Shown in pieces: positions 10,166 to 59,863 of a stretch of DNA of 64,000 nucleotides. The stretch's first letter is position 1; every line of letters starts with the position of its first letter. The notes beneath the pieces were generated by a model. It had not been told where the DNA came from. It did no database searches and saw nothing but the letters and a program-made list of their open reading frames with translations. A program made the translations under genes and the position numbers. Source of the DNA: Escherichia coli (GTDB lineage: Bacteria; Pseudomonadota; Gammaproteobacteria; Enterobacterales; Enterobacteriaceae); the NCBI RefSeq assembly GCF_030013595.1, contig NZ_CP122768.1; one strand, given 5' to 3'.

Positions 10166-11083
10166 ATGCTTTTGGCCGGGAGTAGTTTACTGACGTTGCT
10201 CGATGATATCGCCACACTGCTGGACGATATTTCCGTGATGGGCAAACTGGCGGCGAAGAAAACCGCCGGTGTATTAGGGGATGACTTATCGCTCAATGCG
10301 CAACAAGTTTCAGGCGTGCGGGCCAACCGGGAACTTCCCGTGGTCTGGGGCGTGGCGAAAGGATCGCTGATCAATAAAGTGATTCTGGTGCCGCTGGCGC
10401 TGATCATCAGTGCGTTTATCCCGTGGGCGATTACGCCACTGTTGATGATTGGCGGCGCGTTTCTCTGCTTTGAAGGGGTAGAGAAAGTGCTGCATATGCT
10501 GGAGGCGCGTAAACATAAAGAAGATCCGGCGCAGAGTCAGCAACGTCTGGAGAAGCTGGCGGCGCAGGATCCGCTGAAGTTTGAAAAGGACAAAATAAAA
10601 GGGGCGATTCGTACCGATTTTATATTGTCTGCGGAAATTGTCGCCATCACGCTGGGGATTGTGGCCGAAGCGCCGTTGCTTAATCAGGTGCTGGTGCTTT
10701 CAGGCATCGCGCTGGTAGTGACCGTGGGCGTCTACGGTCTGGTAGGGGTTATCGTTAAGATTGATGACCTGGGGTATTGGCTGGCGGAAAAATCCAGCGC
10801 ACTGATGCAGGCATTAGGTAAAGGGTTATTGATCATTGCGCCCTGGCTGATGAAAGCGTTATCGATTGTCGGCACGCTGGCGATGTTCCTCGTCGGCGGT
10901 GGGATTGTGGTACATGGAATTGCGCCGCTGCATCACGCCATTGAACATTTCGCCGGGCAGCAAAGTGCAGTGGTGGCGATGATATTACCGACTGTTTTAA
11001 ATCTGATTCTTGGTTTTATCATCGGCGGCATCGTGGTGCTGGGAGTGAAAGCAGTAGCGAAAATGCGTGGTCAGGCACATTAA
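10166..11083 (+). CDS. yedI: DUF808 inner membrane protein
   Basis: 305-aa ORF, hydrophobic, conserved position. Confidence 0.85.
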
Positions 11084-11161
11084 TACTCGCACTGGCTATT
11101 ATGCAAAATTCGCCATCTTCAACTAAGGTGAACAAGTTTCACTCGAAAAAAGGAGGCGAGT

Positions 11162-11404
11162 ATGAGCTTTATGGTTAGTGAGGAAGTTACGGTTAAAGAG
11201 GGCGGCCCGCGGATGATTGTCACTGGATACTCCAGCGGTATGGTTGAGTGTCGTTGGTATGACGGTTACGGGGTCAAGCGGGAAGCTTTTCATGAAACCG
11301 AGCTTGTTCCGGGGAGGGGAGTCGTCCTGCGGAAGAAGTTTGAAAGGGTATCATTAACACCAGGCCGGATCACATCCGGCCTGGTGTACCAATGCCTGCA
11401 ATGA
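11162..11404 (+). CDS. yodC: small protein YodC, C-terminus altered by apparent frameshift
   Basis: 80-aa ORF; N-terminal 50 aa match recalled YodC; ORF then reads through the downstream hairpin. Confidence 0.6.
   Translation: MSFMVSEEVTVKEGGPRMIVTGYSSGMVECRWYDGYGVKREAFHETELVPGRGVVLRKKFERVSLTPGRITSGLVYQCLQ
11358..11386 (+). terminator. GC-rich palindromic hairpin (REP-like or terminator) downstream of the expected yodC end
   Basis: caccaggccggatcacatccggcctggtg is a perfect inverted repeat. Confidence 0.45.
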
Positions 11405-46349: not shown

Positions 46350-46425
<76 letters not shown>

Positions 46426-46479
46426 GTTTAAAAGGCATCGGCGTCAAGCGGATGTCTGGCTGAAAGGCCTGAAGAATTT

Positions 46480-46553
46480 GGCGCGTTAACAAAGCGGTTA
46501 TGTAGCGGATTGCAAATCCGTCTAGTCCGGTTCGACTCCGGAACGCGCCTCCA
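46480..46553 (+). tRNA. cysT: tRNA-Cys (anticodon GCA)
   Basis: ggcgcgttaacaaagcggttatgtagcggattGCAaatccgtctagtccggttcgactccggaacgcgcctcca. Confidence 0.95.
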
Positions 46554-46565
46554 CTTTCTTCCCGA

Positions 46566-46652
46566 GCCCGGATGGTGGAATCGGTAGACACAAGGGATTT
46601 AAAATCCCTCGGCGTTCGCGCTGTGCGGGTTCAAGTCCCGCTCCGGGTACCA
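46566..46652 (+). tRNA. leuZ: tRNA-Leu (anticodon TAA), long variable arm
   Basis: gcccggatggtggaatcggtagacacaagggattTAAaatccctcggcgttcgcgctgtgcgggttcaagtcccgctccgggtacca. Confidence 0.95.
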
Positions 46653-46694
46653 TGGGAAAGATGAGAATAAAATCAAAGCAATAAGCAGTGTCGT

Positions 46695-46720
46695 GAAACC
46701 ACCTTCGGGTGGTTTTTTTG
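46695..46720 (+). terminator. rho-independent terminator of the tRNA operon
   Basis: aaccaccttcgggtggtt hairpin followed by T-run. Confidence 0.75.
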
Positions 46721-46782
46721 TGTCTTCTTTCTCATTTCCGAAGATGCGTCCGAAGATGATTTTTCTCTGGACGCATCATCAT

Positions 46783-47799
46783 TCATTTTCTCTGGCCACC
46801 AACTACGGGCACTACTTTAACTTTTCGGTCATATGCTGCTGTCTGTCGTGGGTTCTTATGCCCGGAAATTGCTTGCTTCTCTTCCAGGCTGCCTTCCAGA
46901 TCAGAGATACCTTTTGCTTTCAGATCATGAAATGTGAAGTCTATTTGCAGATGAGGATATTTTTCCTGTGCTGCCGCTTTGACATCACGCCAACGAGAGT
47001 TAAAACCATCACGGGTGTACTTGCCTCCGGTAGTTTGATGAATCACAAACAGGCTACTGATTCCCGGTTTTAATGGCAGAGAACGAGCCAGAGCTATCGC
47101 TTTCTGCAGACGAGGCGACCAGGCTTTGATTTGCTTAACGCCGGTTTTTCCCTGACGAATGTAGATCCCGGAATCGAACAGCTGGTCTTTCTGTAATGAA
47201 AGTACATCACTCTGTCTGGCCACACATAAGTAGGCAATCTCCATTGCCACGCGAACAACATCAGGAGACACTTCATAAACGGCCTGATATTCTTCATCCG
47301 TAATATAACGTTCGCGTGCTGTCTCTTTAAACTGCTTAACTCCCTGACAAGGATTCCTCTGGACATAACCTCGTTCATAACCCCAACGGAATACCCTGGA
47401 CATAAAGCTTTTTTCCCTATTTGCCTGAGTTCGGCTTGATAAACCGCGTTGATCCATATAGCGCCGAATATGTTCAGGTTTGATTTTATCCGGGTCGATC
47501 TTCCCGAAGACAGGCAGAACTTTTCCGGAATATTTTGTGTAGTCTTTCCTGGTTTCGACTGCCAAATCCATAAAATCAGGGGAGGTCATGAATTGTTCCG
47601 CGAGCGCCTGAAAAGTATTTCTTTCTTTTTCGTCACCGACCGCTTTTTCATATGCCAGCCATACGGCTGATCGTGGCGCATCCAATGCGCACAGGCGTAT
47701 CGCTTTGTTATCTTTATTCCTGAATTCGTAGGCCGCTTTGCCCTGGTAAACACGAGGCGGCATCCAGTTATCTGCTGGGTTCTTTCTCTTTCCGGCCAT
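46783..47799 (-). CDS. int: phage tyrosine integrase
   Basis: ORF 46783..47826; likely start ATG 47799 with GGAG 9 nt upstream; C-terminal catalytic region. Confidence 0.8.
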   Translation of the reverse strand: MAGKRKNPADNWMPPRVYQGKAAYEFRNKDNKAIRLCALDAPRSAVWLAYEKAVGDEKERNTFQALAEQFMTSPDFMDLAVETRKDYTKYSGKVLPVFGKIDPDKIKPEHIRRYMDQRGLSSRTQANREKSFMSRVFRWGYERGYVQRNPCQGVKQFKETARERYITDEEYQAVYEVSPDVVRVAMEIAYLCVARQSDVLSLQKDQLFDSGIYIRQGKTGVKQIKAWSPRLQKAIALARSLPLKPGISSLFVIHQTTGGKYTRDGFNSRWRDVKAAAQEKYPHLQIDFTFHDLKAKGISDLEGSLEEKQAISGHKNPRQTAAYDRKVKVVPVVGGQRK

Positions 47800-48031
47800 T
47801 AAATATTGCTCCAAAATCAGGTTCATCTTCTTTTCGCGTCGTCACCTCCTGTAAATTGCGAAATTTTATTGGGTTCAAGAAATGGCCCCAGGTTGTTTTT
47901 GGGTGCCCGTCAGCCCTTTCCATGAAGAAAATTCCAGCCCGGCGAAGAGCCTCACATTGCTTTGATTTAAGTGGGCTTCCCGTCAGCTCGACCATTTCTT
48001 CTCTGGTGATTATGTCGTGATCGCTTTTCAT
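47768..48031 (-). CDS. small phage protein, DUF4224-like (excisionase-associated)
   Basis: 87-aa ORF overlapping int start, typical xis-like position. Confidence 0.5.
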   Translation of the reverse strand: MKSDHDIITREEMVELTGSPLKSKQCEALRRAGIFFMERADGHPKTTWGHFLNPIKFRNLQEVTTRKEDEPDFGAIFNGRKEKEPSR

Positions 48032-51244: not shown

Positions 51245-51565
51245 TTAGTAGGGGATTTCATCAGTATCTGGCGTGTATTCGATGCAAAGTAACTGCTGGA
51301 TTTTGTCATCGATAGCAGCAATACGCTGTTGGGCGTCGGCGACTGTTTTCTGTTTTTGCTCATACAGCTGCTCGACCTGCAAACCGATGATGTCGATTGG
51401 CTGGGGCTGGTTGACGGTAATTTCAATTTCGCGGCTTTCCAGAAGGATGTACCTGTCTGGAAAATTTTTTGACATATCAACAGTCGCAACAAGCAGCTTT
51501 TCGTGGCTGAAAGTTGAAGTTGCATAATTAATAAAGAGTGTTACTGGGATGGTGCGCGCTTCCAT
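51245..51565 (-). CDS. hypothetical phage protein
   Basis: 106-aa ORF with AAGGAG RBS. Confidence 0.5.
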   Translation of the reverse strand: MEARTIPVTLFINYATSTFSHEKLLVATVDMSKNFPDRYILLESREIEITVNQPQPIDIIGLQVEQLYEQKQKTVADAQQRIAAIDDKIQQLLCIEYTPDTDEIPY

Positions 51566-52561
51566 AGCGACTCCTTGGTGATGTATACTCGGGACCGATC
51601 AGCGAATATTGATCAGCTTCCATAGCGTCAGTGTCGTTGGTCTTTCCTCATCACAAGTTTGGTCACTTGTGATAAATCCGAATGGTTTGGTCGCCGTTCG
51701 GGGTAACTGGCCCGCCTTGTGCGGGTCTTTTGCTATCTAAAGGGTGCCGGTTACGTTTCCGGCGTCGTTATGTTTCCATCACGACCGTACGGGGCTGGTC
51801 TTTCCTGTTTTGAGCTGGTCAGGCTCATGGTCAACGCTGGTCAGGCGTGGTACTTCCTCCGGTCTTTCCCTGGTGTCACGCTGCGGGTTTGGCCTCTCCT
51901 GTTGGGGACTCAGGCACAGCGATAAAACCTGGCTGTGTGAAAAAATGGCCCATCGTGCGGACTGGGCAAAGGCTAAACACAGCAAATTGATGATGGGCGC
52001 CCGGAATCGAACCGGGTAACGGGCAGGGAGTTCCCGTTAAACACCTGTTCACCACAACCGGGAGCGCACTCCGCCATTTCAAAATTTAACGACAAAGCTC
52101 AAAGTTGAGTCGATGAAGTGCGCTCTCGTGTTGTAGCCAGGACTCTTCCCTGGTGGTCACACCGTATCGCCTTGATGGTGAATCAATCGCTCATACCTGG
52201 CTGTGGCTTGCACATTCCGGCTAGCTGCTATGGAGACAACGCGTTAAGGCTCCGCTTCCATCCAGACCGCTTCGACACATGTGCCATATGCCGGCGAAGT
52301 CTTTCCCTCTGTCATCGTGTTGGCGCCGACGCGCAAAATTTGATGCCGTCTTTCCGGCTGTCAGAACGTGTTTCTGAACAACTGCCGCTGGGTAAGCGTT
52401 GTTGATGAAAGTGACTTTACAATTTGTATTTGTAATGGTCAACGTATTTTTAAAAAATAATTTGTAGTTAGGGGCAAAAAAATATTCACTGTGTAAAGGT
52501 GTTTTTGTGTTAGGGGGAAAGTTGCATGCCAGCAGCGGCTGGCCTGGAAATTTGAACTGAA

Positions 52562-52975
52562 CTATTTTGTCTGGTTTTTGGCTTCAAGTAGTTCTTTTAG
52601 CAGTAGATCGAAGTGCTCTCTTTTTTCTTTTAGCTCATTGATTAATTTATTTTTTTCGCTCTCAGGCAGTCCTCTGAATAGTTGCAGTAGAGCCTGTTCT
52701 TGCGGGGTTAGTTCTTGATTGTAATTACCCGGGTGTAGCGTGGATTCATCCAAATATTCACCTTCATTCATGAAGAAAAAATGAACAGGGTATCCGGTCA
52801 CTTTTGCTAGCTTGTCTAATTTATCTTTTCTTGGAGTTACCCCATTACACCATGCCTGAACTGATTGAGCCGTAACCCCAATATGGCGAGCTAACTCAGA
52901 TTGAGACCAGCCTAAGTCTTTTAGAATCCGTTGTAGTCGGCTAGCAAAAGCCATGTTTTTCGTTTTTGTGTTCAT
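52562..52975 (-). CDS. phage repressor-like HTH protein (cI-like)
   Basis: ORF 52562..52990 opens on TTG; HTH (GWSQSELARHIGVTAQSVQAW); divergent from cro-like gene; start uncertain. Confidence 0.7.
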   Translation of the reverse strand: MNTKTKNMAFASRLQRILKDLGWSQSELARHIGVTAQSVQAWCNGVTPRKDKLDKLAKVTGYPVHFFFMNEGEYLDESTLHPGNYNQELTPQEQALLQLFRGLPESEKNKLINELKEKREHFDLLLKELLEAKNQTK

Positions 52976-52994
52976 ACCGTAAGGATACAAGGTT

Positions 52995-53060
52995 TAATTG
53001 TAGGGAGCATTGCAAATATAATTTGTAATTACAGTTATGATTTGTAATGATGGCGCGGAC
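52995..53060. promoter_or_regulatory. candidate operator/promoter region between divergent repressor and cro-like genes
   Basis: Repeated ATTTGTAAT half-sites (ttgcaaatataatttgtaattacagttatgatttgtaatga). Confidence 0.45.
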
Positions 53061-53073
53061 ACAAGGAGTCCAT

Positions 53074-53304
53074 ATGGATAAACAACTGCAAGACAAAATT
53101 CTTTCCGTAATGAGTCAATCCGAGTTAGGGCGGCGATTAGGGAAAAAACCACAAACGGTAAGCCTCTGGTTCAAAGGAAGGGTTCCCGGTGAAGAGGTTT
53201 TGCGCACATCTGAAGCTCTTGAATGGCGCGTGACCCCCCATGATCTTAGACCGGATCTTTACCCAAACCCAGATGACAGCTTGCCTAAAACGAAAGCAGC
53301 TTAA
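53074..53304 (+). CDS. Cro-like HTH regulator
   Basis: ORF 53047..53304; ATG 53074 after AAGGAG; HTH (SQSELGRRLGKKPQTVSLW). Confidence 0.7.
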   Translation: MDKQLQDKILSVMSQSELGRRLGKKPQTVSLWFKGRVPGEEVLRTSEALEWRVTPHDLRPDLYPNPDDSLPKTKAA

Positions 53305-58649: not shown

Positions 58650-58976
58650 ATGACTAAAAATACTCGTTTTTCCCCCGAAGTCCGTCAGCGGGCGATTCGT
58701 ATGGTTCTGGAAAGTCAGGATGAATATGACTCACAGTGGGCGGCAATTTGTTCCATTGCCCCAAAGATTGGCTGTACGCCGGAGACTCTGCGTGTCTGGG
58801 TTCGCCAGCATGAGCGGGATACCGGGGGCGGTGATGGTGGGCTCACCAGCGCTGAACGTCAGCGTCTGAAAGAGCTGGAACGTGAAAATCGTGAACTGCG
58901 CCGCAGTAACGATATCCTTCGCCAGGCTTCCGCTTATTTTGCGAAGGCGGAGTTCGACCGCCTCTGGAAAAAATGA
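58650..58976 (+). CDS. IS3-family transposase OrfA
   Basis: 108-aa [25 protein letters not shown] recognised as IS629/IS1203 OrfA. Confidence 0.9.
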
Positions 58977-59863
58977 TGCCACTGCTGGATAAGCTGCGTG
59001 AGCAGTACGGGGTCGGACCGGTATGTAGCGAACTGCATATTGCCCCGTCAACGTATTACCATTGTCAGCAACAGCGACATCATCCGGATAAACGCAGTGC
59101 CCGTGCGCAGCACGATGACTGGCTGAAGAAAGAGATACAGCGCGTATACGATGAAAATCACCAGGTATACGGTGTGCGTAAAGTCTGGCGTCAGTTGTTA
59201 CGGGAAGGTATCAGAGTGGCCAGATGCACTGTGGCACGTCTCATGGCAGTTATGGGACTTGCCGGTGTTCTCCGGGGTAAAAAGGTCCGCACTACCGTCA
59301 GCCGGAAAGCCGTTGCCGCAGGCGACCGCGTAAACCGTCAGTTCGTGGCAGAACGACCTGACCAGCTGTGGGTGGCTGATTTTACTTACGTCAGCACATG
59401 GCAGGGCTTCGTCTATGTGGCGTTTATCATTGATGTGTTTGCCGGATACATCGTGGGGTGGCGGGTCTCATCGTCTATGGAAACGACATTCGTGCTGGAT
59501 GCGCTGGAGCAGGCGTTGTGGGCCCGTCGTCCGTCTGGCACCATCCATCACAGCGATAAAGGCTCTCAGTATGTGTCACTGGCCTATACGGAGCGACTAA
59601 AAGAAGCCGGATTACTGGCATCAACAGGGAGTACAGGCGACTCGTATGACAACGCGATGGCTGAGAGCATCAATGGTCTTTACAAAGCGGAGGTAATACA
59701 CCGTAAGAGCTGGAAAAAACGTGCAGAAGTGGAACTGGCCACACTAACGTGGGTGGACTGGTATAACAATCGACGATTGCTGGGAAGGCTGGGCCATACT
59801 CCTCCGGCAGAAGCAGAAAAAGCTTATTATGCTTCCATCGGAAACGATGATCTGGCAGCCTGA
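58973..59863 (+). CDS. IS3-family transposase OrfB (DDE integrase-like)
   Basis: 296-aa ORF overlapping orfA in -1 frame. Confidence 0.9.

Follow-up and report, generated by a model that had tools for sequence, protein, structure and literature searches.

A compact tRNA-like RNA in the early leader of an Escherichia coli prophage, in the position of a phage tRNA-Arg gene and beside an RprA-like module

The early leader of a lambdoid prophage of Escherichia coli encodes a compact, four-arm tRNA-like structure (TLS) of about 65 nucleotides on the minus strand (51992–52058, delimited from alignments A3 and A8 with their pair counts). The structure is conserved across diverged phage lineages, stands in the position where homologous phage cassettes carry a genuine tRNA-Arg(UCU), and is followed by a module that resembles the 3' half of the small RNA RprA. 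Coordinates refer to the stretch of 64,000 nucleotides of E. coli DNA that was analysed (the window), and all features of the leader described here lie on its minus strand. The TLS is most likely a cutting signal rather than a decoding tRNA. On balance, and with modest confidence, we favour the explanation that it is a tRNA-derived processing module, at which cuts by RNase P and RNase E would release a mimic of processed RprA.

A T arm within a compact tRNA-like fold

A sequence-only reading of this DNA had picked out a T-stem/loop, and the minus strand from 52020 to 51994 indeed reads gttaCCCGGTTCGATTCCGGGcgccca, exactly as that reading gave it. The segment forms a hairpin with a 5-bp stem, CCCGG/CCGGG (52016–52012 with 52004–52000), and a 7-nt loop, TTCGATT (52011–52005). 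Judged against 200 dinucleotide-preserving shuffles and counting both strands of the window, a TTCGATT loop with five flanking Watson–Crick pairs occurs at one site where 0.025 are expected. A looser definition (TTCRANY loop, G-U pairs allowed) finds five sites versus 1.4 expected, three of which are the true tRNAs glyW, cysT and leuZ. The hairpin recurs in six diverged lineages, its loop kept as UUCGA(U/C/A)U, and because of this conservation it is not a product of chance. Two of the five stem pairs show compensatory changes (CG/GC/UA and CG/GC).

The sequence-only reading had also offered a tRNA-like RNA element as one interpretation, and comparative analysis bears this out: the T arm belongs to a four-arm tRNA-like fold supported by covariation. 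We analysed ten distinct sequences from six lineages, which come from few viral contigs. The T arm (52000–52016; stem CCCGG/CCGGG, loop UUCGAUU) is 100% paired in the ten sequences. Preceding it is an anticodon-like arm (52017–52039), whose 7-bp stem is UAACGGG/CCCGUUA and whose 9-nt loop is AACUCCCUG; it is likewise 100% paired, with three compensatory pairs (four by a hand-parsed count). The loop retains CCCU in all lineages, and in lineages F and G it is 7 nt long (CUCCCUA and UUCCCUA). A miniature D-like arm (52040–52049, AAC-AGGU-GUU) has a 3-bp stem and a 4-nt loop with an invariant GG; 96.7% of its cells are paired, and its middle pair changes from A-U to U-A between lineages. In tRNAs the GG of the D loop docks on the T loop, and the GG of the AGGU loop is its counterpart in the TLS.

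The fourth arm is acceptor-like. Its inner helix, stacked directly under the T stem, pairs the 5' strand GGUG (52050–52053) with CGCC (51996–51999); it is 93.3% paired over three of its four pairs, one of which covaries (UG/UA/CG), and at the fourth (52050 with 51999) nine of the ten sequences have G-C. The acceptor-like 3' strand (51992–51999, CGCC-CAUC) does not encode CCA. Its outer half, CAUC, could pair weakly with GUUG at 52055–52058; in a fixed register this outer helix is 65% paired, and its 5' strand, GUUGU, doubles as the end of the upstream helix P_L described below. Spacer nucleotides, a variable loop and an encoded CCA are all absent from the fold. Placed in register with the homologous tRNA-Arg, the TLS would have its position +1 at G 52055, and its acceptor 3' strand would end near 51994.

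Taken as a whole, the 22 pairs of the fold are formed in 92.3% of alignment cells versus 79.5% in shuffled alignments, and the covariation score is 0.417 versus 0.175, with 0 of 500 shuffles reaching the observed value in either case. Slid-partner controls gave at most 50.5% pairing. Seven pairs carry double-sided compensatory changes. Within the T, anticodon-like and D-like stems, every substitution keeps pairing except for one U-U in the D-like stem, and the loops UUCGAnU, AGGU and CCCU stay constant while the stem sequences drift. A T arm with the T-loop consensus abuts an acceptor-like helix coaxially, and covariation indicates that the fold is under selection. A 1-nt indel in the anticodon-like loop excludes a coding segment, and a search with the covariance model R1 found the TLS only in homologous leaders.

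Three other structural models were considered and set aside. The first, a three-way junction in which the acceptor had 8 bp and a bulge and the linker AACAGG was unpaired, was superseded by the data from six lineages, which yield the mini D arm and the short inner acceptor and place the ‘bulged' nucleotide of that model within P_L. The second follows the single-sequence minimum free energy fold in pairing a linker GGUG with CGCC; it shows no covariation, is broken in lineage A' and in sequences L271 and L300, and is incompatible with the covarying D-like hairpin. The third, a tRNA-Sec-style acceptor taken from the Rfam alignment (GGAGUGCGC/GCGCCCAUC), fails in lineage A'.

The element is not a decoding tRNA

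ARAGORN calls in the window are limited to glyW, cysT and leuZ, with none at the motif and no tmRNA, and its relaxed and mitochondrial modes returned contradictory identities (Val, Gln, His) that we discarded. The Rfam tRNA model reported no match at E ≤ 10 in a search of 401 nt. The best match within the tRNA clan, to tRNA-Sec, scores 19.3 bits versus a gathering score of 47 bits, and 15.2 bits in lineage A'. The element departs from the standard cloverleaf (7-bp acceptor, 4-bp D stem with an 8–11-nt loop, 5-bp anticodon stem with a 7-nt loop, and a variable loop): the T arm is its sole canonical part, with the D stem at 3 bp and the anticodon-like stem at 7 bp. Where a discriminator and CCA would be expected, the window has CGCCCAUC-AUCA and no CCA; A-CC(G) after the acceptor is kept in lineage D only. 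The element is no decoding tRNA.

The sequence-only reading had stated that no full cloverleaf can be drawn. This holds for a canonical cloverleaf, for which ARAGORN makes no call, but not for the compact, non-canonical one that the comparative data support. It had further proposed that the tRNA interpretation be dropped if there were no covariance-model match and if any likeness to a tRNA 3' half stopped at the T loop. Both are what we found, and this criterion was too strict: it would have discarded the idea, which comparative structure and slot homology rescue.

A non-coding cassette in a lambdoid leader

The TLS lies in an ORF-free, early-left leader of about 1 kb, downstream of the repressor gene. 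Homologue annotation and Pfam identify an HTH repressor, a Cro-like gene, Gp157 and an integrase, which define a lambdoid-type prophage; a P4-satellite context, suggested by the order integrase, large ORF, 106-aa ORF and leader, was rejected on the same evidence. Unlike P4, the leader has no match to C4, isrK or a1b1. A PL-like promoter (52414–52442, TTGACC-17-TAAAGT), conserved in homologues, is the only sigma-70-like site on the minus strand within 51400–53100. An inverted repeat overlapping it (TTACAA..TTGTAA) could be an operator. Similarity to the HK022 putL site was also sought, and the leader has none, so a put-like antiterminator was rejected.

Downstream of the promoter, a conserved structured 5' domain (52137–52293), delimited by BLAST and a consensus fold, is common to Uetakevirus-like, P1-like and Lastavirus phages. 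Its consensus fold comprises 32 pairs, five of them with double-sided changes, and the domain matched no family in Rfam. It is followed by the long-range helix P_L, whose 5' strand (52116–52134) reads ACAAC-AC-GAGAGCGCACUU and whose 3' strand (52054–52072) reads GGAGUGCGCUC-CCG-GUUGU and ends where the TLS or the tRNA begins. P_L appears in the minimum free energy fold with z = -4.0; of its 19 predicted pairs, seven show double-sided changes across seven phages, and its end changes from ACAAC/GUUGU in the window to GCAAC/GUUGC in lineage A'.

The slot of a genuine tRNA-Arg(UCU)

Comparison of homologous leaders reveals a widespread phage cassette with a common order: promoter, the conserved 5' domain (in some cassettes), helix P_L, either tRNA-Arg(UCU) or the TLS, an RprA-like trailer sRNA and a terminator. 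Among the matches listed, which do not amount to an unbiased census, a genuine tRNA-Arg(UCU), as called by ARAGORN, follows the invariant P_L 3' strand (AGUGC.CUC...GUUG) in at least 104 instances, and the TLS does so in at least 32. The cassette tRNA-Arg of Salmonella phage SPN1S scores 71 bits with the Rfam tRNA model. In the homologue L231, an E. coli-type P_L is followed by a real tRNA-Arg(UCU), a hairpin, an RprA-like seed and a terminator, so that a terminator-bearing sRNA module stands directly downstream of a tRNA; the window has the TLS in the position of that tRNA. BUCT708 carries the same cassette with the tRNA precisely missing. Given the shared slot, ‘tRNA-gene derivative' is also a reasonable description.

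The TLS resembles the phage tRNA-Arg(UCU) genes of SPN1S and Klebsiella phage ST512-KPC3phi13.3 in its position directly after the P_L 3' strand, in the first acceptor nucleotides GUGG, and in having a T arm and a GG-containing D region. In some TLS lineages the likeness extends to the register of the acceptor, the discriminator A and the trailer. A perfect 6-bp acceptor, in register with that of the tRNA, occurs in lineages D and F; D retains A-CC after it, and lineage E retains the trailer of the tRNA cassette, GAAUCACG..CGUGAU. Unlike these tRNAs, the TLS has a D arm shrunk to 3 bp and a 4-nt loop, lacks positions 8–9 and 26, the variable loop and an encoded CCA, has a 7-bp anticodon-type stem with a CCCU loop of 7–9 nt, and fails both the ARAGORN and the Rfam tRNA models. 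This reduced architecture is kept in settings as different as the lambdoid PL leader, the Uetakevirus-like cassette and the promoter-proximal type G.

The TLS is present in 447 of 5426 complete E. coli genomes (about 8%), is unannotated, and is absent from Rfam. Pattern scans added little: a scan of genome contigs used an overly strict pattern and gave E. whittamii as its one relevant find, the other matches being mostly spurious, and a scan of metagenomes was too loose, with three relevant sequences among the matches listed (at least about 120). Our literature search found no report of this tRNA-like element or of a phage RprA homologue; a preprint on Pas sRNAs concerns other loci.

An RprA-like module beyond an A/U-rich spacer

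Next to the TLS lies a copy of the RprA 3' half (51940–51988), comprising UUGCUGUGUUUAGCCUUUGCCC, a terminator hairpin (51967–51948) and a U run. With the Rfam RprA model (RF00034) the module reaches 34 bits in the window, and its counterpart in lineage A' 56.2 bits, versus a gathering score of 70 bits; there is no full-length match at that score, and similarity at the sequence level is limited to the 3' half, which in lineage A' is near-identical to that of K-12 RprA, terminator included. The adjacent module resembles processed RprA and is not an rprA gene. RprA's RNase E site, its seed UUGCUGUGUGUAGUCUUUGCCC and its terminator are all reproduced, but the 5' half is missing, and with it the stem-loops and the segment annotated for pairing with narP and rpoS; the seed in the window carries two substitutions (GUUUAGCC). 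The RprA-like seed follows the TLS in lineages A, A' and G.

An A/U-rich spacer, AUCAAUUU (51984–51991), separates the TLS from the module, and CAA|UUU within it fits the RNase E motif RN|WUU; RprA itself is cut at GA|AUU, and RNase E also generates the 5' end of leuZ-3'ETS from its tRNA precursor (PMC5222698). The last 47 nt of RprA are a functional species (PMC9262595). RNase E cuts 1–3 nt past tRNA CCA ends (PMC2190699). The arrangement is like that of 3'ETS-leuZ in that a terminator-bearing, Hfq-type sRNA module sits in the 3' trailer of a tRNA (in L231) or of the TLS (in the window), with an A/U-rich, RN|WUU-like site in between. It differs in that 3'ETS-leuZ is a sponge for RyhB and RybB whereas the phage trailer resembles RprA, and in that the ‘tRNA' of the window is a non-decoding, phage-encoded mimic in an early leader, for which processing is predicted.

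A proposed processing pathway

We envisage the following course for a tRNA-derived processing module. The TLS would be a diverged derivative of, or a replacement for, the cassette's tRNA gene. A transcript from PL would be made upon induction or infection, and the tRNA-maturation machinery would recognise its tRNA-like fold. RNase P would cut on the 5' side of the TLS, immediately after P_L, and RNase E would cut the A/U-rich trailer, as it does after leuZ and within RprA. These cuts would free the structured RNA upstream and, with a 5'-monophosphate end, an Hfq-type mimic of processed RprA, which may itself be an active sRNA.

The acceptor is imperfect in lineage A, to which the window belongs, and in A' and G, where there are four inner pairs and the outer pairs compete with P_L, and no RCCA follows the TLS; because of these two features, recognition by RNase P would be weakened. 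RprA-like modules exist apart from any tRNA or TLS, in types B and C and in phage 606R2, and so the TLS is not needed for production of the sRNA. Conversely, lineages D and F keep the TLS with no recognisable RprA-like module, and for this reason the TLS may serve some separate function. Nor does a pure punctuation role explain why CCCU in the anticodon-like loop is so strictly conserved.

Should the processing model hold, the TLS would be a phage or bacterial tRNA-derived fold kept solely as a handle for host tRNA-maturation enzymes, and one early transcript would give rise to several non-coding RNAs: the conserved structured RNA, the mimic of a tRNA, and an RNA copying the half of the host regulator RprA that is active after processing. 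It would link phage-borne tRNAs, 3'ETS trailer sRNAs and the mimicry of core host sRNAs by phages, subjects that are mostly treated separately. The case of the TLS also illustrates that tRNA finders and Rfam thresholds overlook a coherent family of reduced tRNA-like genes.

Alternative explanations

A decaying tRNA pseudogene, that is, a cassette tRNA that has lost its D arm, variable loop and CCA and persists as a neutral, functionless remnant, is in our judgement unlikely, although several observations would fit it. The element occupies the slot of a real tRNA-Arg, tRNA finders miss it, and its acceptor stem is degenerate in lineages A, A' and G, with CCA not encoded. Within E. coli, all 447 genomes match a 77-nt query that covers the T arm and the RprA-like module with 95% identity or more, so that recent selection is unreadable at this level. 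Across lineages, however, decay does not account for stem substitutions that preserve pairing in six lineages (one U-U excepted), for seven compensatory pairs, for loops that remain constant while stems drift, or for the same reduced architecture in very different cassette contexts.

A further alternative is that the TLS is released as a stable RNA that acts in trans, engaging a host or defence factor that recognises tRNAs, for instance as a decoy for an anticodon nuclease or for a modification or processing enzyme; the elbow and the CCCU loop would be its working parts, and the neighbouring sRNA would be incidental. We regard this as quite unlikely. It would accommodate the retention of the CCCU loop and of the T-loop/GG elbow determinants in all lineages, the persistence of the TLS in D and F apart from the RprA-like module, the canonical-looking loops of F and G (7 nt, with U at position 33), and the alternation with a real tRNA-Arg at one locus. 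Against it, no associated protein gene separates phages with the TLS from phages lacking it, and a loop that varies from 7 to 9 nt is odd for a mimic of an anticodon loop. A combined scheme, in which a stable trans-acting mimic has been swapped for tRNA-Arg and the same transcript delivers a processed-RprA mimic that would rewire Rcs/RpoS-linked regulation, we likewise consider rather improbable.

The location in an early-operon leader recalls the C4 and CI immunity RNAs, which are RNase P substrates (PMC5499578), and one could suppose that the TLS is an RNase P-processed antisense RNA whose loop pairs with repeats (CAGGGA...) in its own transcript and so controls downstream expression. Indeed, the loop sequence UCCCUG is complementary to CAGGGA in GGGAAAGACC-type repeats at 52151–52146 and 51872–51867. 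Nevertheless this reading is highly improbable. The window contains no match at E ≤ 10 to the Rfam C4 model (RF01695, clan CL00128) or to c4-a1b1, models that score 74.9 and 44.1 bits, respectively, on the P4 positive control. Energies of loop–leader duplexes are no better than those of shuffled loops (fractions 0.29, 0.05 and 0.40), and on this comparison antisense targeting by the CCCU loop appears improbable. Relatives lacking the TLS also carry the repeats, and the phage has a protein repressor and Cro-type immunity genes. The C4 RNA of P1 and P7, the CI RNA of P4 and the M3 RNA of phi80 are, like the TLS, small structured RNAs of phage early leaders that exploit host tRNA-processing enzymes, but they are hairpin-like and ‘lack a T loop equivalent' (PMC5499578), whereas the TLS combines a true T arm with a cloverleaf-like junction.

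The remaining idea, likewise raised by the sequence-only reading, is that the motif is the 3' end of a host tRNA left at a former att site by past integration or excision; tRNA 3' ends are common integrase targets and the prophage adjoins leuZ, but this is barely credible and already contradicted, for the 63-nt core, searched against 5426 E. coli genomes, matches this prophage family alone and no host tRNA gene or other locus, the motif at 52000 lies inside the early leader about 4 kb from the integrase (46783–47826) and the att end, leuZ (46566–46652), its 3'ETS and its terminator are intact with the prophage starting downstream of them, and the same element is found in prophages at other sites, such as serU in strain RM9387. 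In phage records the similarity to unrelated tRNAs is confined to 18–19 nt of the T arm, matching actinophage tRNA-Pro genes at chance level (E = 2–6).

Relation to other tRNA-like RNAs

The tRNA-like domains of tmRNA and of bacterial Y RNA (YrlA) are reduced mimics that keep the acceptor/T-arm stack and an analogue of the D loop. The TLS is also a reduced tRNA mimic with such a stack and a D-loop analogue, but unlike them it yields no tmRNA call and no Rfam match and has no CCA end; the flanking annotation of the homologous E. coli locus contains none of rsr, ssrA and smpB. A functional parallel to the proposed processing comes from eukaryotes. At the MALAT1-mascRNA locus a tRNA-like fold recruits RNase P, which separates an upstream structured non-coding RNA from the downstream RNA. 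The logic that we propose for the TLS would be the same, as a functional analogy between RNAs that have no sequence relationship.

A T-arm motif in the leader of a prophage early-left operon

Comparison with homologous loci annotated in RefSeq/GenBank, together with Pfam, identified the surrounding region as a lambdoid-type temperate phage. An HTH repressor gene (52562-52990, minus strand) is accompanied by a Cro/YdaS-like gene (53047-53304, plus strand) with replication genes to its right, and the left-hand operon comprises a 106-aa ORF, a 741-aa ORF, Gp157, a DUF4224 protein and the integrase. Approximately 1 kb without conserved ORFs separates the repressor gene from the 106-aa ORF. The minus strand of this stretch contains a single predicted sigma-70-like promoter (TTGACC-17-TAAAGT, 52442..52414) and a predicted intrinsic terminator (51967..51940). 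The T-arm motif gttaCCCGGTTCGATTCCGGGcgccca (52020..51994, minus strand; a 7-nt TTCGATT loop on a 5-bp stem) therefore lies in the early-left operon leader, in agreement with the sequence-only reading, which had placed a T-stem/loop inside a prophage leader. The exact loop with five Watson-Crick pairs occurs once in the window against 0.025 expected from 200 dinucleotide shuffles, and a looser definition gives five sites where 1.4 are expected, the genuine tRNAs glyW, cysT and leuZ (46350-46652) accounting for three of them. The motif is thus confirmed and unlikely to be due to chance, and its conservation across lineages settles that it is real.

Ten sequences fit one compact cloverleaf

An IMG/VR scan with the conserved hairpin that precedes the motif revealed a modular organisation of the segment bounded by this hairpin and by a conserved module farther downstream; more diverged versions came from a second scan, which used the invariant helix strand plus a T loop as its anchor. 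Ten distinct sequences from six lineages entered the structure comparison: lineage A (the window), A' (contigs L025 and L033), D (L028, L030 and E. whittamii L060), E (L217), F (L257) and G (L249, L255, L271 and L300). One compact cloverleaf accommodates all ten, bearing out the earlier suggestion of a tRNA-like RNA element, which in the window occupies 51992..52058 (minus strand). An initial three-way-junction model, in which the 8-bp acceptor was bulged, gave way to this cloverleaf, as did a single-sequence minimum-free-energy alternative fold.

In a MAFFT alignment of the ten sequences, 92.3% of cells at the 22 cloverleaf pairs were paired, compared with 79.5% in column shuffles (0/500), the covariation score was 0.417 versus 0.175 (0/500), and slid-partner controls reached at most 50.5% paired. 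Pairing is complete (100%) in the T arm, with compensatory changes in two of five pairs, and in the 7-bp anticodon-like arm, with three compensatory pairs; the middle pair of the 3-bp D-like arm switches from A-U to U-A. The inner acceptor helix is 93.3% paired with one covarying pair, and the outer acceptor (GUUG with the 3' tail) is 65% paired in a fixed register. Stems drift while loops are kept: the T loop reads UUCGA(U/C/A)U and the D-like loop AGG(U/G) across lineages, and the anticodon-like loop keeps CCCU within 7 nt in F (CUCCCUA) and G (UUCCCUA) and 9 nt in the window, a 1-nt indel in this loop excluding a coding explanation. The tRNA elbow is built by the D-loop-type GG and the T loop; both are retained in the element, where they probably interact with each other. 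Against this pattern of drifting stems and constant loops, we regard a neutral tRNA pseudogene as unlikely.

The element occupies a phage tRNA slot

Directly 5' of the element is the 3' strand of P_L, a long-range helix strongly predicted between 52134-52116 and 52072-52054 (minus strand; z = -4.0), for which seven phages give 19 predicted pairs, seven with double-sided changes. After this strand, at least 104 cassette instances carry a genuine tRNA-Arg(UCU) and at least 32 a tRNA-like RNA. The slot tRNA of Salmonella phage SPN1S reaches 71 bits against the Rfam tRNA model. The G of GUUG|UGG serves as its G1, and the GUGG with which it opens also begins the tRNA-like RNA. In contig L231 a P_L of the window's E. 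coli type is followed by a genuine tRNA-Arg, then by a hairpin and by an RprA-like seed plus terminator; 'Stenotrophomonas phage' BUCT708 carries this cassette precisely minus the tRNA. Lineage E has kept the tRNA cassette's trailer; in the tRNA register, the acceptors of D and F are perfect over 6 bp, and D retains A-CC after the acceptor. The element is thus the positional homologue of a phage tRNA gene, and it very probably derives from some such gene. Of the proposed tRNA-gene remnant from a former att site, descent from a tRNA gene is thus reasonable, for a phage gene; the att origin is not supported, no tRNA gene being matched in 5426 complete E. coli genomes. We consider it highly likely that the element is a tRNA-like RNA under selection and located in a tRNA slot.

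The insert enclosed by P_L is variable. GUUGU at the end of this helix has two possible partners, the ACAAC upstream and a downstream strand of (CA)CCACAAC type that closes the 'cargo' in Tyrion, SopranoGao and LLS, and these alternative pairings could act as a switch. Viral contig L249 (~10640-11300) has two tandem cassettes, the first with Tyrion-type cargo closed by GUUGUGG/CCGCAAC and the second with P_L, a lineage-G tRNA-like RNA and an RprA-like seed. A structured 5' domain of ~160 nt (window 52137-52293, minus strand; L053 2501-2672; L052 2501-2589; L187-L191) is conserved in very different phages (a lambdoid prophage, Uetakevirus-like, P1-like and Lastavirus), with 32 predicted pairs, five showing compensatory changes; of seven other phages checked, four have a tRNA gene no more than ~200 nt from the domain. 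The leaders of BUCT708 (OM816834) and BUCT709 (OM816835) are 72% identical to this prophage leader, RprA-like module included, which is odd for a Stenotrophomonas host and may make that host assignment questionable.

An RprA-like module follows the element

Eight bases 3' of the element begins a copy of the RprA 3' half (51940-51988, minus strand), comprising RNase E site, seed and terminator, identified by the Rfam RprA model and alignment. Under this model the window copy reaches 34 bits and the A' copy 56.2 bits. The match at sequence level lies in the 3' half, over which A' is near-identical to K-12 RprA, including the terminator. RprA's final 47 nt exist naturally as an active species (PMC9262595), made by RNase E cutting at GA|AUU; the same enzyme, whose motif is RN|WUU, cuts a tRNA precursor to give leuZ-3'ETS its 5' end (PMC5222698). 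The spacer 3' of the tRNA-like RNA matches this motif, as AUCAA|UUU in the window and AAAA|AUU in A'. An RprA-like seed follows the tRNA-like RNA in lineages A, A' and G; the module occurs without it in cassette types B and C, phages LLS and 606R2, and is not recognisable in lineages D and F, where the tRNA-like RNA is present.

Further RprA-like copies were found in L025, L003, L007, L009, L196, L195 and L194, and N4-like Erwinia phages have similar modules, as do the PL leaders of temperate phages LLS and 606R2. The majority carry no annotation, and a few are covered by ORFs labelled hypothetical proteins.

A possible role in RNA processing

The early-left transcript may be processed in the manner of a tRNA precursor. 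RNase P would cut on the 5' side of the tRNA-like RNA, directly after P_L, and RNase E within the A/U-rich trailer, the two cuts together yielding a 5'-monophosphate mimic of processed RprA with its 3' end at the terminator. The phage non-tRNA RNase P substrates C4, CI and M3 'lack a T loop equivalent' (PMC5499578), whereas the element has one and is for that reason a closer tRNA mimic. The proposal is weakened because the window's lineage has an imperfect acceptor and lacks CCA, because the outer acceptor pairs compete with P_L, and because the RprA-like module is not strictly dependent on the tRNA-like RNA. Nor does it account for the conserved CCCU loop, which hints at a function of the RNA itself. 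A trans-acting tRNA mimic or decoy seems to us quite improbable. We lean slightly towards the overall reading, in which a tRNA-like RNA kept by selection in a tRNA slot acts as a processing module, and consider it somewhat less likely than not that processing is its main role.

Other origins of the motif

A tRNA gene was rejected. ARAGORN reported no tRNA or tmRNA at the element, and Rfam searches gave nothing there over 20 kb at E <= 1 and, over 401 nt at E <= 10, a sole match to tRNA-Sec at 19.3 bits against a gathering score of 47, so that no tRNA covariance model matches at threshold; relaxed ARAGORN modes on three variants made mutually contradictory calls. Similarity to tRNA genes was likewise confined to the T arm: the 63-nt core matched this prophage family only, and no tRNA gene, in 5426 complete E. 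coli genomes, and across 50,697 phage records the part that matched unrelated actinophage tRNA-Pro genes was the 18-19-nt T arm alone (E = 2-6).

A P4-like satellite with CI/C4 RNA was suspected first and rejected, the C4 model scoring 74.9 bits in P4's leader and having no match in the window. A C4/CI-like antisense RNA is very improbable, its loop complementarity being no better than that of shuffled loops. An att-site remnant of a host tRNA can be virtually dismissed, given the core's lack of any E. coli tRNA gene match, the prophage's position downstream of an intact leuZ with its 3' trailer and terminator, the integrase ~4 kb from the element, and the same element in a prophage at another site, serU, in strain RM9387.

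Distribution and genomic surroundings

The element is present in 447 of the 5426 complete E. coli genomes, always (447/447) as lineage A joined to the RprA-like module; lineage D is in none. No feature is annotated at the element in RefSeq records among the matches listed, neither the tRNA-like RNA nor the conserved 5' domain has a family in Rfam 15, and full-text literature searches turned up no account of these two or of a phage RprA homologue. We would place the element with the tRNA-like or tRNA-derived elements used in RNA processing. Phage tRNAs and tRNA-trailer sRNAs come together at this locus with the mimicry of a core host sRNA. A pattern scan of metagenomes also returned an abundant metagenomic family of tRNA-like 3' ends (GGTGAACAGGAAATATGGGCATGACACGCAAGGGGTCGCAGGTTCAAGTCCTGCACGGCCCAC; L085, L089, L092 and many more) and a second family (GGGTGAGTGGTGAACAGG...GCAGGTTCGAATCCTGCCTCACC), neither related to this locus.

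The prophage is inserted just downstream of the glyW-cysT-leuZ operon (46350-46730, plus strand), in which the leuZ 3' trailer is apparently intact and the terminator present. This trailer is the known 3'ETS-leuZ sponge; a host tRNA-trailer sRNA and an analogously laid-out phage cassette lie ~5 kb apart. An ALIL pseudoknot, an IS3-family frameshift element (58931-59047, plus strand), scores 119 bits in Rfam, which indicates an insertion sequence within the prophage region. The motif GGAAAGAC has ten copies in the window against 1.9 expected (47542, 48033, 51217, 51640, 51798, 51862, 52299 and 52348, minus strand; 53869 and 56599, plus strand), every one inside the prophage and in the sense orientation of the early operons. 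In four cases an ORF start codon follows 2 nt later, an arrangement resembling a ribosome-binding site. Five are in the ORF-free leader, where at least the first two read as 4-bp stems with a GAAAGA loop, the first having compensating stems in a relative; the motif is similar to CsrA sites or boxB.
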